From contig NC_015315.1 of assembly GCF_000193375.1 (NCBI RefSeq), forward strand, positions 410,622 to 442,621: 32,000 nt of DNA. Reading direction: 5' to 3'. How positions within the stretch are numbered: position 1 is the stretch's first letter; every line of letters starts with the position of its first letter. Positions 18,826-24,404 of this stretch are shown in pieces. The notes beneath the pieces were generated by a model. That model searched no databases and was not told the origin of the DNA. It worked only from the letters and a program-made list of their open reading frames with translations. The stretch is from Thermoproteus uzoniensis 768-20 (lineage in GTDB: Archaea; Thermoproteota; Thermoprotei; Thermoproteales; Thermoproteaceae). The translations under genes were made by a program, and so were the position numbers.

Positions 18826-18921
18826 TTTTTTAGAGGATTAGGCGGGCCGTTGCGATCTCGGCGCCCGCCGCCTGTTCTCCGCCGACCGGTTAAGTTTAAT
18901 TACAGGTATAGGTGGATCCCC

Positions 18922-19257
18922 GTGGTCGTGGTAAAGGGCGTAGTAGTAAGCAAACAGCTGGTTGCGGATCCCACAGGCACCCGTTACGTGAAGATAGATG
19001 TAGTGGAGGAAAAAGATGTGCCGGGCCCCTTAGTGATGGCGCCGTCCGACGAGCAGACGGCCCCAGTGGCGAGGGAGATAATGCCGCTGGTGTCCCAGAT
19101 AATCAGATCCCTCCCCTTCTCCCTTAACAAGATAGCCGTGCCGCGCCTCACCGTCTGGCTGACCGACGATGAGGTGGAGTCGCTTGGAGACGTCGACGTA
19201 GGCGACAGCGTCGATATAGAGATCGATCAAGGAATAATTAAAATAAGGCCCAGCTGA
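18922..19257 (+). CDS. Arcadin-1-like small protein (first gene of the arcade cluster)
   Basis: Assigned by its position immediately upstream of crenactin. I prefer the in-frame GTG at 18922, 27 nt after TTTAAT (18895), over the track's TTG at 18850. No motif recognised, so the assignment rests on synteny only. Confidence 0.5.
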
Positions 19258-19266
19258 GTTCTCGAC

Positions 19267-21381: not shown

Positions 21382-23758
21382 GCTAAGGGACTTCAAGGTC
21401 TACGAGGGCGAGTACGAATTCAAGCTATCGCCGGTGACGGCCATCGTCGGCAGAGTCGGCGCCGGCAAATCCTCGTTGTTGCAGGCGGTCGAGTTCGCCC
21501 TATTCGGAAAGGAATTGGAGGTCAGGCAGAGGATAGCGAGGCTTGCGGACTTAATCAACCTCAACTCCGACAGCGCCTTGGTGGAGCTGGAGCTGACCGA
21601 CGGGTCCAGAAAAGCCCTGGTGAGGCGGTCGGTGGGGAGGGGAGGCCGGAGCCGCCTAGAGCTTAGGCTGGACGACCACAAATATACCGACGAAGACGCC
21701 GAGAGGACGCTCGCCGAGCTGACCGGGATAACGAGCGACGACTACGACAGGGTGATCTATGTATCCCATTACGCGCTCGAGGACTTCATCCACGGCGATA
21801 GGCTTAAGAGAACCTCGTTAATAGATAAAATACTTCAGATCGATATATTAGATAACACTCAGAAAATAATAAATAATATATTAAAAAATATAATGGAAGA
21901 AATAGAAAAAATTAGAATAAAGATATCGTATTACGAGAAATATAGGGATATAATAGAGAAGTACGGAGGTCTGTCTAAGTTGAAGGAGGTCAAGGCGTCG
22001 CTTGAGAGGGAGCTTGAGGGCCTCACGCGGCGGGAGGCCGACCTCTCGTCGAGATATAGGGAGCTCTTGGAGGAGAGGCGCAGATACGCGGACAAGTTGA
22101 CCAGTCTCCAGGACAAGATAAACGCCTATTATAGGGCAAAGTCTGAGCTGGAGTTGCTCGAGGAGTCCGGCTACTCCTACGCCTCGGAGCTGGGGCAGAT
22201 AGAGGAGTTGAGGGATAGGTTCGTCGGCGTGATGTCCGAATTCGAGCACATGCTAGATCCGCAGATGATAGAGAGGATATCGCGGGAGCCCGACGCGGCC
22301 AAACTGGCGGAGCTCCTCCAGGAGGCGTATGGAGAGCTCGCCAAGGTCAAGAGCTCCCTGGAAGAGGCCCTCTCGGCGGCCGAGGCCCAGAGGAGATCTC
22401 TGGCGGCTAAACTGGACGAGGTACGGGCGGAGATCTCGAGACTTAGGGCAAGGGTCGACCAGCTTGAGGAGGCCTACAAGAAGTTCAAGGAGATCTCGGC
22501 GCGCTATGGGCCCCCCGAAGAGGCCAGGAAGAGGTTAGACGAGATGAGGGAGAAGGTCAAGGAGCTTGAGAGAAGGGCCAACTACGCCTCGTCGTTGAGG
22601 TACATTCTCCTGTACGTGTTGGAGACAGGCGCCGAGAGGTGTCCCGTATGCGGCGGCAAGTTGGATAGGGACGCCGCGTCCAGCAGACTAAAGGATATAG
22701 AGAAGGAGTACTCGCAGGAGCTCGAACAGCTGGAGAAGGCCAGGGAGGAGTTGGAGGCCCTGGAGAGCGCCTACAAGGAGATGGCGTCGTTGCTCGGGCC
22801 CGTCTCGGAGTATCTCAAGGCCAGGGAGGAGCTGGAGAGGCTGGCTGGCGAGGAGGAGAAGATCAAGGCGAGGTTGGACCAAGCCGCTAAGTCGTCGTCC
22901 CAGATCTCGCGCCGCCTCGAGCTGTTGGCGGGCTTCCTAAACGACGTGACTCCGGAAGCCATAGAGGAGGTGGTCAGGAGGTACAACAAGGCGCTTAGGG
23001 TAAGGCAGCTCCGCGAGGAGCTGGAGGGCTTGGAGAGGGAGCTCAAGAACCTAGGCCTAAGCGGCGCGGCTCTGGAGGCCGAGGAGGAGTTCCGGAGGAT
23101 CTCCGATGAGCTTGACAGGACGAGGAGGAGGAAGGCGGACATATACGACGAGCTGAGGAGGCTCTCGGAGGTTCTGGCCAACGTAGACGAGGAGCTAGAC
23201 TCCTTGAAATCTAAGCTAGAGAAGTATATGTATTCATATAATAGATTCTCTAATATAATAAATAAGATAGATATATTAAAATATAATGTTAGATCTAGGA
23301 TAATTAAGGAGATAGAGGACGAGCTGTGGAGGAACTTCTCGAAGATATACCCGTATAGGGATATCGAGTCGTTGAGGCTGACGTTGAGGGACAAGGGGTA
23401 TGAGGTTGAGGCCAGGCTGGCCGACGGAAACGTCGTGGGGATCTCCAAGCTCAGCGACGGGCAGAGGCTGGCGGCGGCCCTCTCGCTCGTGATATCCATG
23501 CGCAGGTTGCTGGGCCCCAAATTGGGCTTCCTCCTGCTCGACGACCCTCTGCCCTACGTGGATCCCAACGTCAGGTCGTCGCTGGCGGGCCTCATCGCGT
23601 CGCTCAGCTCGGAGTACCAGATAGTGGTGGCGACGCAGACTGGCGATCTGCCCAGAGAGATAGCGGCCAACGGAGTCGACGTGAGGGTCATAGAGCTCTC
23701 GCGCGGCTCGGGAAGGCCCGAAGCAACGACTAAAGATATATTTGCGGGAAAGGATTGA
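21359..23758 (+). CDS. Arcadin-4: Rad50/SMC-like coiled-coil ATPase with a central CxxC zinc hook
   Basis: Walker A GRVGAGKSSLL, about 550 aa of Glu/Arg/Leu-rich coiled coil, CPVC at residues 428-431 (nt 22640-22651), signature LSDGQRLAAALSL, and Walker B FLLLDDPLPYVD. Confidence 0.8.
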   Translation: MWRIARIKLRDFKVYEGEYEFKLSPVTAIVGRVGAGKSSLLQAVEFALFGKELEVRQRIARLADLINLNSDSALVELELTDGSRKALVRRSVGRGGRSRLELRLDDHKYTDEDAERTLAELTGITSDDYDRVIYVSHYALEDFIHGDRLKRTSLIDKILQIDILDNTQKIINNILKNIMEEIEKIRIKISYYEKYRDIIEKYGGLSKLKEVKASLERELEGLTRREADLSSRYRELLEERRRYADKLTSLQDKINAYYRAKSELELLEESGYSYASELGQIEELRDRFVGVMSEFEHMLDPQMIERISREPDAAKLAELLQEAYGELAKVKSSLEEALSAAEAQRRSLAAKLDEVRAEISRLRARVDQLEEAYKKFKEISARYGPPEEARKRLDEMREKVKELERRANYASSLRYILLYVLETGAERCPVCGGKLDRDAASSRLKDIEKEYSQELEQLEKAREELEALESAYKEMASLLGPVSEYLKAREELERLAGEEEKIKARLDQAAKSSSQISRRLELLAGFLNDVTPEAIEEVVRRYNKALRVRQLREELEGLERELKNLGLSGAALEAEEEFRRISDELDRTRRRKADIYDELRRLSEVLANVDEELDSLKSKLEKYMYSYNRFSNIINKIDILKYNVRSRIIKEIEDELWRNFSKIYPYRDIESLRLTLRDKGYEVEARLADGNVVGISKLSDGQRLAAALSLVISMRRLLGPKLGFLLLDDPLPYVDPNVRSSLAGLIASLSSEYQIVVATQTGDLPREIAANGVDVRVIELSRGSGRPEATTKDIFAGKD

Positions 23759-23762
23759 GGCG

Positions 23763-24404
23763 ATGCAGGAGAACTGCGGCGTTTTCGTGGTCTCGGACCT
23801 CGGCGAGGTGGGCGTCTATAGGGGCGACAACTACGTCGTGGCCAAGGTAGAGCCCTACGGCCTGGCCTTCAACGACTACGGGAAGGTCGTCGTGTTGTAC
23901 GACACGGTCGCCCTCTACGAGAACTTGATGGAATTTATATCAAGGGAATTGAATGGATGTAGGAGGCTCTCGTTGGAGATCGACGCCAAGGAGATAAAGC
24001 TGGAGTCCGTACAGGCGTTGCACAAGGCGCTGGACTACACCACGTTGTTATATCTGCTGGCGCTGAAATCTCGCCCATCGTTGATACACGTAGTCGGCCG
24101 TAAAGGCCGCCAGAGACGCCCGGCCCAGGGAATAGGCAAGATAATGGCGAGGACCAGCCCCATACCTCCTCAGTACGTGGCCAAGAGGACTCCCCCATTC
24201 CCTCTGCCCCCCGTAGTGGAGGAGGTCTCCATCACAGCCCGCCGGGTCTCCGGGGAGAGGTACAGAGCATTTGTGAGGGTGGTCGGAAGCGCGACGTCGG
24301 CGAGGGCTAAGGTCGTCGAGACGGAGACTCTGTATAGGCGCATAATAAGTGGACTGGTGTCCGCCCTTCCGCAACTGGACTGGATGGAGTACGTATACTT
24401 ATAA
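23763..24404 (+). CDS. Hypothetical protein apparently co-transcribed with arcadin-4
   Basis: The ATG at 23763 lies 4 nt after the arcadin-4 TGA; the track's TTG at 23742 would overlap arcadin-4. 213 aa with a central Pro/Arg-rich segment. No motif recognised. Confidence 0.55.
   Translation: MQENCGVFVVSDLGEVGVYRGDNYVVAKVEPYGLAFNDYGKVVVLYDTVALYENLMEFISRELNGCRRLSLEIDAKEIKLESVQALHKALDYTTLLYLLALKSRPSLIHVVGRKGRQRRPAQGIGKIMARTSPIPPQYVAKRTPPFPLPPVVEEVSITARRVSGERYRAFVRVVGSATSARAKVVETETLYRRIISGLVSALPQLDWMEYVYL

Follow-up and report, generated by a model that had tools for sequence, protein, structure and literature searches.

How much of the gene string around an archaeal actin homologue belongs to a cytoskeletal system already described, and how much of it is new? 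The question is raised by a 32,000-nucleotide (nt) stretch of the Thermoproteus uzoniensis 768-20 genome (NC_015315.1, positions 410,622 to 442,621; hereafter the window, with positions counted from its first letter), in which six closely spaced open reading frames (ORFs) on the same strand were confirmed from the ORF list. The five known genes of the canonical, previously described arcade cluster, arcadin-1, crenactin, arcadin-2, arcadin-3 and arcadin-4, are all present in the region 18922-23758, contiguously on a single strand with overlaps or with spacers of at most 29 nt. The sixth gene, encoding a protein of 213 amino acids (aa), is the only ORF beyond this textbook set and is new to the literature searched. 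The best overall explanation of the locus is very probably a known arcade cluster accompanied by a clade-restricted 213-aa gene that stands outside the core machine. A preliminary description of this DNA had recognised the complete cluster in its canonical order, and curated models, PDB matches and synteny bore this out; the ORF positions, the 14-nt overlap between crenactin and the 204-aa ORF, the start of the 213-aa gene 4 nt past the preceding stop codon and the three actin motifs that it reported were likewise confirmed. Its placement of a 58-aa ORF beyond the textbook set did not hold: because the 58-aa ORF is arcadin-3 and the Rad50-like 799-aa protein is arcadin-4, only the 213-aa ORF is extra.

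The 435-aa actin-fold protein (19267-20574, plus strand, GTG start) is, as judged from its sequence, crenactin, and lies nearer to crenactin than to MreB, MamK, ParM or Hsp70. It scored 724.4 bits on the NCBIfam crenactin equivalog (cut-off 630) and only 47 bits on MamK (cut-off 400), and it matched Pyrobaculum calidifontis crenactin (4CJ7/5MW1) with an E-value of 2.3e-227 and 77% identity, P. calidifontis crenactin entries being its only PDB matches at E<=0.001. The protein thus groups with crenactin rather than with MreB, ParM or Hsp70, the point on which the preliminary description had let its identification hang. The actin-fold motifs phosphate-1 DFGTS, phosphate-2 EGGHGN and adenosine LSGGAF are legible in the translation; in an alignment of 17 crenactins (down to 44% identity), D17, G19, E182, G184-N187, S353, G354 and G355 were invariant, and T20 and F357 nearly so. 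Crenactin of P. calidifontis polymerises in an ATP-dependent manner into double-helical filaments (PMC5173319), and the window protein would likewise form F-actin-like double filaments with ATP. The crenactin of the metagenome-assembled genome Thermoproteus sp. KM4324-17 was 99% identical to it. Crenactins in the protein database searched were often labelled 'heat-shock protein Hsp70' by NCBI-derived sources.

Immediately 5' of crenactin lies arcadin-1 (18922-19257, plus strand, GTG start, 111 aa), which matched Pfam Arcadin_1 (1.3e-42; 144.8 bits, cut-off 25) and aligned over residues 2-110 to the P. aerophilum arcadin-1 structure 5LY5 (E 1.6e-41), while no NCBIfam model matched it. GTG 18922 is taken as the start because the alignment of homologues lent no support to TTG 18850; the Pfam match does not begin until residue 27 of the longer ORF read from that TTG, and the protein is 111 aa long in six Thermoproteus lineages. 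The first protein of the string, previously given as 112 aa, therefore exists as an ORF but has 111 residues, the figure of 112 having counted the stop codon. By analogy with published Pyrobaculum work, arcadin-1 would bind crenactin weakly.

The 204-aa product of the gene overlapping the end of crenactin by 14 nt (20561-21175, plus strand, GTG start) was identified as arcadin-2 by the NCBIfam model Rkd2, with 300.5 bits (cut-off 290) over residues 1-203 against model positions 1-195 of 196. A C-terminal peptide of the crenactin-binding type is present, preceded by a linker rich in Pro, Gln and Ala, and the motif N(E/P)W-x-x-(I/L)L at this end was found in 73 of 77 homologues, across all lineages sampled. 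In Pyrobaculum, the C-terminal peptide of arcadin-2 occupies the hydrophobic groove of crenactin and depolymerises the filaments (PMC5173319). The tail of the window arcadin-2 corresponds to that peptide; binding is predicted, and its insertion into the groove would lead to sequestration or depolymerisation of crenactin as published for Pyrobaculum. The eukaryotic actin-monomer binders thymosin beta-4, WH2 and cofilin use the hydrophobic groove as well, and arcadin-2 acts in the manner of these proteins by means of a short C-terminal peptide (PMC5173319), for which the motif is present here; they share no sequence relationship with it, and the published view is one of convergence.

Arcadin-3 (21205-21381, plus strand, GTG start, 58 aa) aligned end to end with the NCBIfam model Rkd3 (residues 1-58 against model positions 1-56, E 1.1e-17), with 63.8 bits, below the curated cut-off of 90. 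For comparison of gene order, 80 crenactin loci from species-representative genomes, together with contigs carrying members of the 213-aa family, were annotated by iterated profile searches, and arcadin-3 was found between arcadin-2 and arcadin-4 in 39 loci, Pyrobaculum included. The protein is 58 aa long in six lineages, and its ratio of nonsynonymous to synonymous substitution rates (dN/dS) was 0.12-0.33. Published descriptions speak of a 'small' arcadin-3 and of arcadin-4 as a Rad50-like protein (PMC5173319). The Rkd3 cut-off misses the Thermoproteus arcadin-3; since arcadin-1 has no NCBIfam match either, automatic annotation will label both proteins hypothetical.

Arcadin-4 (21359-23758, plus strand, 799 aa) overlaps the end of arcadin-3 by 23 nt. 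It scored 948.9 bits on the NCBIfam model Rkd4 (cut-off 860) and stayed under every Rad50 and SMC equivalog cut-off of that collection, the best Rad50 model reaching 102.8 bits against a cut-off of 847 (Rad50 cut-offs span 700-1087). Its Pfam domains are SMC_N and Rad50_zn_hook, and a Walker A, a CPVC zinc hook, an LSDGQ signature and a Walker B motif were recognised. On these grounds, arcadin-4 is to be read as a Rad50-like coiled-coil ATPase and not as Rad50 proper. It shares with the ATP-binding cassette (ABC)-type ATPases of the Rad50/SMC family the split ABC head (Walker A, the signature-like LSDGQ, Walker B and D-loop), the long coiled coil and the CxxC hook, through which, as CPxC, it should dimerise. 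It differs from them in scoring far under their cut-offs, in having Gln in place of the H-loop His and in being partnered with the 58-aa arcadin-3 rather than with Mre11; family scans of the window proteins found no Mre11-like gene beside it. The Walker A motif was invariant and the CPxC motif was kept in 39 of 39 family members, as was the glutamine at the position of the Rad50 H-loop histidine (residue 760). In the window protein and 10 of the 39 members, the Walker B Asp is followed by a second Asp (residue 729 in the window protein), whereas the DE form occurs in 29; the DD form is that of the window and other Thermoproteus arcadin-4 proteins. The H-loop Gln and the Walker B Asp suggest that the ATPase cycle of arcadin-4 may be unusual or slow. 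Two A/T-rich islands lie inside the gene (21825-21950 and 23236-23300) with runs of all-A/T octamers; they encode segments rich in Ile, Asn, Lys and Tyr, about 155-200 residues from the N-terminus and about 150-175 from the C-terminus.

The order arcadin-1, crenactin, arcadin-2, arcadin-3, arcadin-4 was found in every Thermoproteus and Pyrobaculum locus examined. The published arcade cluster of P. calidifontis (Ettema et al. 2011; Izoré et al. 2016, PMC5173319) resembles that of the window in the five genes and their order, in a crenactin of 77% identity, in the groove motif of arcadin-2 and in a Rad50-like, zinc-hook arcadin-4. As in the window, arcadin-3 of the Pyrobaculum loci examined is placed between arcadin-2 and arcadin-4 and in general runs into the start of arcadin-4; unlike in the window, alba is not directly upstream, and arcadin-4 abuts a block comprising trmB and a candidate small RNA (sRNA) without a 213-aa gene between. 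The locus of Thermoproteus tenax Kra1 (TTX_0751-TTX_0756) is syntenic with the window throughout, from a helix-turn-helix (HTH) membrane protein gene and alba through the five arcade genes to TTX_0756, trmB and a radical S-adenosylmethionine (SAM) gene; it differs in a non-coding spacer of ~130 nt between arcadin-4 and TTX_0756, where the window has 4 nt, and protein identities range from 55 to 84%. Both the actin-like TTX_0752 and an uncharacterised, co-operonic protein had been pointed out in the T. tenax genome paper (Siebers et al. 2011, PMC3189178).

The cluster had been taken as restricted to Thermoproteales and Korarchaeota, which is out of date. Among the species-representative genomes, 224 stretches encode crenactin relatives, and crenactin with an adjacent arcadin-2 was present in 76 of the 80 loci examined, including Caldarchaeales (Geocrenenecus, Wolframiiraptor), Bathyarchaeia, Brockarchaeota, Culexarchaeia and Methanomethylicota. 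A wider spread of crenactin and some arcadins is already in print (bioRxiv 10.1101/2022.04.06.487207). Outside Thermoproteales and Thermofilaceae (L039-L081), the conserved unit was crenactin and arcadin-2 alone, arcadin-2 usually lying directly downstream of crenactin and in a few cases directly upstream, with the motif DNPW..IL conserved throughout. Arcadins 3 and 4 beside crenactin were confined, among the loci examined, to Thermoproteales and Thermofilaceae. In Thermoproteales, which have neither FtsZ nor ESCRT, the leading candidates for the division and shape machinery are the genes of crenactin and the arcadins (PMC7617429, PMC7613921). To that core picture, the present locus adds nothing, being a known cluster in another genome; the widely conserved pair of crenactin and arcadin-2 may be of use to those who work on the system.

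The 213-aa gene occupies 23763-24404 on the plus strand, its ATG lying 4 nt past the arcadin-4 stop codon. The start was set by an alignment of ten homologues (60-96% identity) that showed no frameshifts, and dN/dS against five Thermoproteus lineages was 0.06-0.16, in the same range as for the arcadins; the ORF is, on this evidence, a real gene under purifying selection. It evolves at the rate of arcadins 2, 3 and 4 and not at that of crenactin or the radical-SAM gene, the protein being 60% and 25% identical to its T. tenax and L019 homologues, respectively, where arcadin-4 is 55% and 30% identical. The family is tiny: nine clusters among 5.8 billion were found by the first search and twelve by a profile that included distant members, and an exhaustive profile search of 1.84 billion representatives returned three members. 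No match was obtained in Pfam, NCBIfam or PHROGs even at permissive E-values, nor by profile in the PDB at E<=10. The protein is soluble and basic (isoelectric point (pI) 9.4), and consists of an acidic N-terminal and a basic C-terminal domain, joined by a linker of pI 12 that contains nine prolines. AlphaFold with a diverse alignment gave five converging models (predicted local distance difference test 84-87.5, predicted template modelling (TM) score 0.85), and a Foldseek comparison of two AlphaFold models with the PDB and BFVD yielded best TM-scores of 0.23-0.32, which are not meaningful; weak matches to TsaB, MreB and hot-dog folds were discarded on their TM-scores. Descent from a neighbouring gene was rejected as well, with hhalign probabilities of at most 1.1% against arcadins 1-4, crenactin, TrmB and Alba. 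The T. tenax homologue, TTX_0756, is not discussed in the literature searched. Its annotated ATG (10001 of L001 10001-10657, 218 aa) is probably 12 nt too far 5'; ATG 10013 (214 aa) is favoured because of the family alignment and the position of the TATA-like box.

The family was limited to Thermoproteus, L019/L035 and L090/L083, and its carriers represent three deep lineages, namely Thermoproteus, the uncultured L019/L035 (homologue 25% identical) and L090 (27% identical). The preliminary description had proposed that the 58-aa and 213-aa ORFs be followed across crenactin loci: the former, as arcadin-3, recurs in 39 loci, and the latter keeps to these few lineages. Arcadin-4 lay directly 5' of the homologue in 16 of the 18 contexts with visible upstream sequence, and in seven Thermoproteus loci the gene begins 4 nt past the arcadin-4 stop. 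Two contexts depart from this, the short contigs L083 and L084, where the sequence beyond 50 nt upstream of the ATG gives way entirely to an IS607-like recombinase gene. In L083 (76-606, minus strand), as also in L084, this gene upstream of the P0130 homologue encodes a serine recombinase of the IS607 type with an N-terminal HTH and a resolvase domain; the promoter box is retained in L083 because homology to L090 begins ~50 nt before the ATG. Genes other than the trmB/radical-SAM pair lie downstream in L090, among them a BlaI-like winged HTH gene and a DUF2153 gene, whereas trmB and the radical-SAM gene are syntenic in Thermoproteus, Pyrobaculum and L019/L035.

The 213-aa gene was absent from the arcadin-4-bearing loci of the Pyrobaculum clade (ten), the Vulcanisaeta group (13) and the Thermofilaceae type (seven). 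Nine Pyrobaculum-clade loci showing both flanking genes run from arcadin-4 straight into the convergent trmB block over a gap of ~55-115 nt, and no Pyrobaculum homologue was found in the protein databases searched; the lone 'Pyrobaculum sp.' cluster (P0007, L091) shares 74% identity with the window protein and has trmB and the radical-SAM gene around it in the manner of Thermoproteus. The Vulcanisaeta-group and Thermofilaceae-type loci hold all five arcade genes, except that arcadin-1 was undetected in three of the latter type, and the genes behind arcadin-4 in these 20 loci are unrelated housekeeping genes. That another family provides a conserved sixth gene at this place was ruled out, the followers being DapA-like, aIF2-gamma, CstA-like and KaiC/RecA-like with no common family. 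Among the Thermofilaceae-type loci, a same-strand gene for a KaiC/RecA-superfamily ATPase follows arcadin-4 in L064 (14636-15469), L072 (14971-15792), L080 (13379-14167) and L044 (15967-17064). L010 has a RadA gene at this place.

A neighbour-joining tree of crenactin and arcadin-4 placed Thermoproteus and Pyrobaculum as sisters (200/200 bootstraps) with L019/L035 outside them (200/200), and a tree of arcadin-4 alone joined L090 to the clade of Thermoproteus, Pyrobaculum and L019/L035 (193/200), apart from the Vulcanisaeta group. The simplest history would be a single gain beside arcadin-4 in the ancestor of Thermoproteus, Pyrobaculum and the two uncultured sister lineages, with a single loss in Pyrobaculum. 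Alba was more widely kept beside crenactin than the 213-aa gene, occurring within ~1-2 kb of it in 25 loci (L001, L003-L006, L017, L019-L038, L044, L064, L066, L072, L080 and L082 bear it) from Thermoproteus, the Vulcanisaeta group and Thermofilaceae, and not in Pyrobaculum.

Whether the six genes are read together was addressed by scanning for the best A/T octamer within -36..-17 nt of each start codon, where a TATA box is expected for leaderless mRNA, the usual arrangement in Thermoproteales as known from Pyrobaculum. A perfect 8/8 octamer was present before alba, arcadin-1, crenactin, arcadin-2, arcadin-3 and the 213-aa gene, and only a 6/8 octamer before arcadin-4; the chance frequency of an 8/8 octamer in this window is 0.044-0.058 per position. 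The TATA boxes announced in the preliminary description before 18922 and 21205 are indeed all-A/T octamers, each starting 27 nt before the start codon: TTTAATTA at 18895-18902 for arcadin-1, and TAAATATA from 21178 for arcadin-3, the latter belonging to the box TAAATATAAA (21178-21187, 27-18 nt before the GTG). Crenactin has an A/T-rich, TATA-like box 34-21 nt before its GTG within the 3' end of arcadin-1 (19233-19246), arcadin-2 has AATATAAATAAA 31-20 nt before its GTG within the last crenactin codons (20530-20541), and the 213-aa gene has AAGATATATTT 31-20 nt before its ATG within the last arcadin-4 codons (23732-23743), all on the plus strand. Thermoproteus and most of the Pyrobaculum loci compared have boxes at matching distances before arcadin-1, crenactin and arcadin-3 as well, that of arcadin-3 being strongly conserved in Thermoproteus and that of crenactin being kept at about the same distance in L019 also; the arcadin-2 box, conserved across Thermoproteus, varies in Pyrobaculum. 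Arcadin-4 is preceded by the Shine-Dalgarno (SD)-like element TGGGGGAT, of the form TGGGG(G)AT, 4-11 nt upstream and within arcadin-3.

Because of their 23-nt overlap, the lack of a TATA box for arcadin-4 and the SD-like element in its place, arcadin-3 and arcadin-4 are predicted to form one transcription and translation unit. As TATA-like boxes lie ~26 nt before the starts of arcadin-1, crenactin, arcadin-2 and arcadin-3, the cluster is probably read from several promoters, one each for arcadin-1, crenactin and possibly arcadin-2, plus one for the arcadin-3/4 bicistron, giving several leaderless mRNAs. The 'only two or three transcription units' suggested previously are thus doubtful and probably an undercount, with such boxes before five of the six genes. 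For the 213-aa gene, the box was found at the same distance in every lineage while the spacer to arcadin-4 varied (~130 nt in T. tenax, 23 nt in L019/L035 and 140 nt in L090). The DNA of the box codes for the arcadin-4 tail in the window, L003-L006 and L017 and is intergenic in T. tenax, L019/L035, L090 and L083; that it is kept in either case points to a promoter of its own. This argues for the 213-aa gene being read from its own promoter rather than co-transcribed with arcadin-4.

From this evidence, we lean towards the 213-aa gene being an unrelated or at most dispensable, clade-specific neighbour; a role as a functional partner of the arcade cluster, which had been proposed, is the less likely reading. 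The protein could be a true sixth component, an 'arcadin-5', that would work as a clade-specific accessory with arcadin-4 or crenactin, for example by tethering arcadin-4 to DNA or filaments via its basic linker and C-terminal domain. This reading, which we consider rather unlikely, draws on the persistence of the gene behind arcadin-4 in three deep lineages although arcadin-4 itself is only ~30% identical between them, on its occurrence only in arcade-bearing genomes wherever the context is visible, on the 4-nt gap of the seven Thermoproteus loci and on the charge of the protein and its linker. Survival of the adjacency in L090 despite a different right flank, and a substitution rate and dN/dS like those of arcadins 2-4, which would fit a functional link, also speak for it and weigh directly against the gene being a mere neighbour. 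The preferred reading of the locus as a whole is further weakened by the score of arcadin-3 under its curated cut-off and by the nature of the promoter boxes, which are consensus matches only and are located in A/T-rich codons of upstream genes. Against a sixth component stand the loss of the gene in Pyrobaculum, the genus of all the experiments, where the five-gene system has been shown to function, its absence from the Vulcanisaeta group and Thermofilaceae with their complete clusters, and its absence from most arcade-bearing lineages overall. The gene also has its own conserved TATA-like box at a distance from arcadin-4 that ranges from 4 to 140 nt, and it is intact in L083 though a recombinase gene separates it from its upstream context. 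Moreover, synteny is as strong for trmB and the radical-SAM gene, neither of which is suspected of a part in the cytoskeleton, and the protein resembles no arcadin and no known partner of actin or SMC proteins. A more specific proposal, that the TTX_0756 family is a hitherto unrecognised, clade-specific fifth arcadin with a fold new to solved structures, which would act with arcadin-4, for instance in coupling it to DNA or crenactin filaments, in Thermoproteus and the two uncultured sister lineages and would have been lost secondarily in Pyrobaculum, is more doubtful still. The gene may nevertheless serve as a candidate accessory in Thermoproteus, for which Pyrobaculum offers a natural 'knock-out' comparison.

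That the gene was left behind by a mobile element or virus which happened to land next to arcadin-4, on its downstream side, is very improbable. The tiny family, the lack of a known fold, the fast evolution and the IS607-like serine recombinase gene beside P0130 would agree with it, but scans with P0130 and with the family alignment found no relatives in the viral contig collection, none appeared in PHROGs or BFVD, and a metagenome scan with P0130 also returned none. The position is stable and vertically inherited in three deep lineages under purifying selection, the L083 recombinase gene seems to have been inserted later, upstream of a promoter that was kept, and no repeats, integrase or other mobile-element genes surround the gene in the window. 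Least credible of all is the original picture, in which both the 58-aa and the 213-aa ORF exceed the textbook set and the tightly packed locus has only two or three transcription units. The ORFs do overlap or nearly abut, and TATA boxes do precede arcadin-1 and the 58-aa ORF; equally good A/T boxes, however, precede crenactin, arcadin-2 and the 213-aa gene, and the 58-aa ORF is arcadin-3 by the Rkd3 model, by its position in 39 loci and by the published account of a small arcadin-3 and a Rad50-like arcadin-4 (PMC5173319).

On the left, the direct neighbour of the cluster is alba (18544-18825, plus strand), encoding the chromatin protein Alba (Pfam Alba 5e-17; NCBIfam AlbA 123.6 bits, cut-off 90); a T-run follows its stop codon, and it lies outside the arcade set. 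The right-hand boundary is formed by the convergent gene of a TrmB-family regulator (24512-25228, minus strand; Pfam TrmB 1.5e-22). Between this gene and the 213-aa gene lies a candidate C/D box sRNA (24404-24462, minus strand), which belongs to the trmB side, is convergent with the 213-aa gene and abuts its stop codon. It has a C box GTGATGA (24458-24452), a D box CTGA (24409-24406) and the TATA-like element TTATATAC ~25 nt upstream; in Rfam it remained under the gathering score for every family (sR3, 18 bits). The candidate was also found downstream of trmB in L001, L003, L005-L008 and L012-L018, and in Pyrobaculum it abuts the arcadin-4 stop. Most Thermoproteus and Pyrobaculum loci compared share its guide GGTCTGGAGC or have a variant of it that differs by one base, and in L019/L035 the guide GGTCTGGAGC lies on the opposite strand. 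Three long antisense ORFs (19030-19833, 22771-23520 and 21019-21396) had no family matches and were taken as shadows of the GC-rich coding strand. Farther along the window, Rfam located a 109-nt tRNA at 30445-30553 (plus strand, 41.8 bits) that ARAGORN did not report, presumably an intron-containing tRNA gene.

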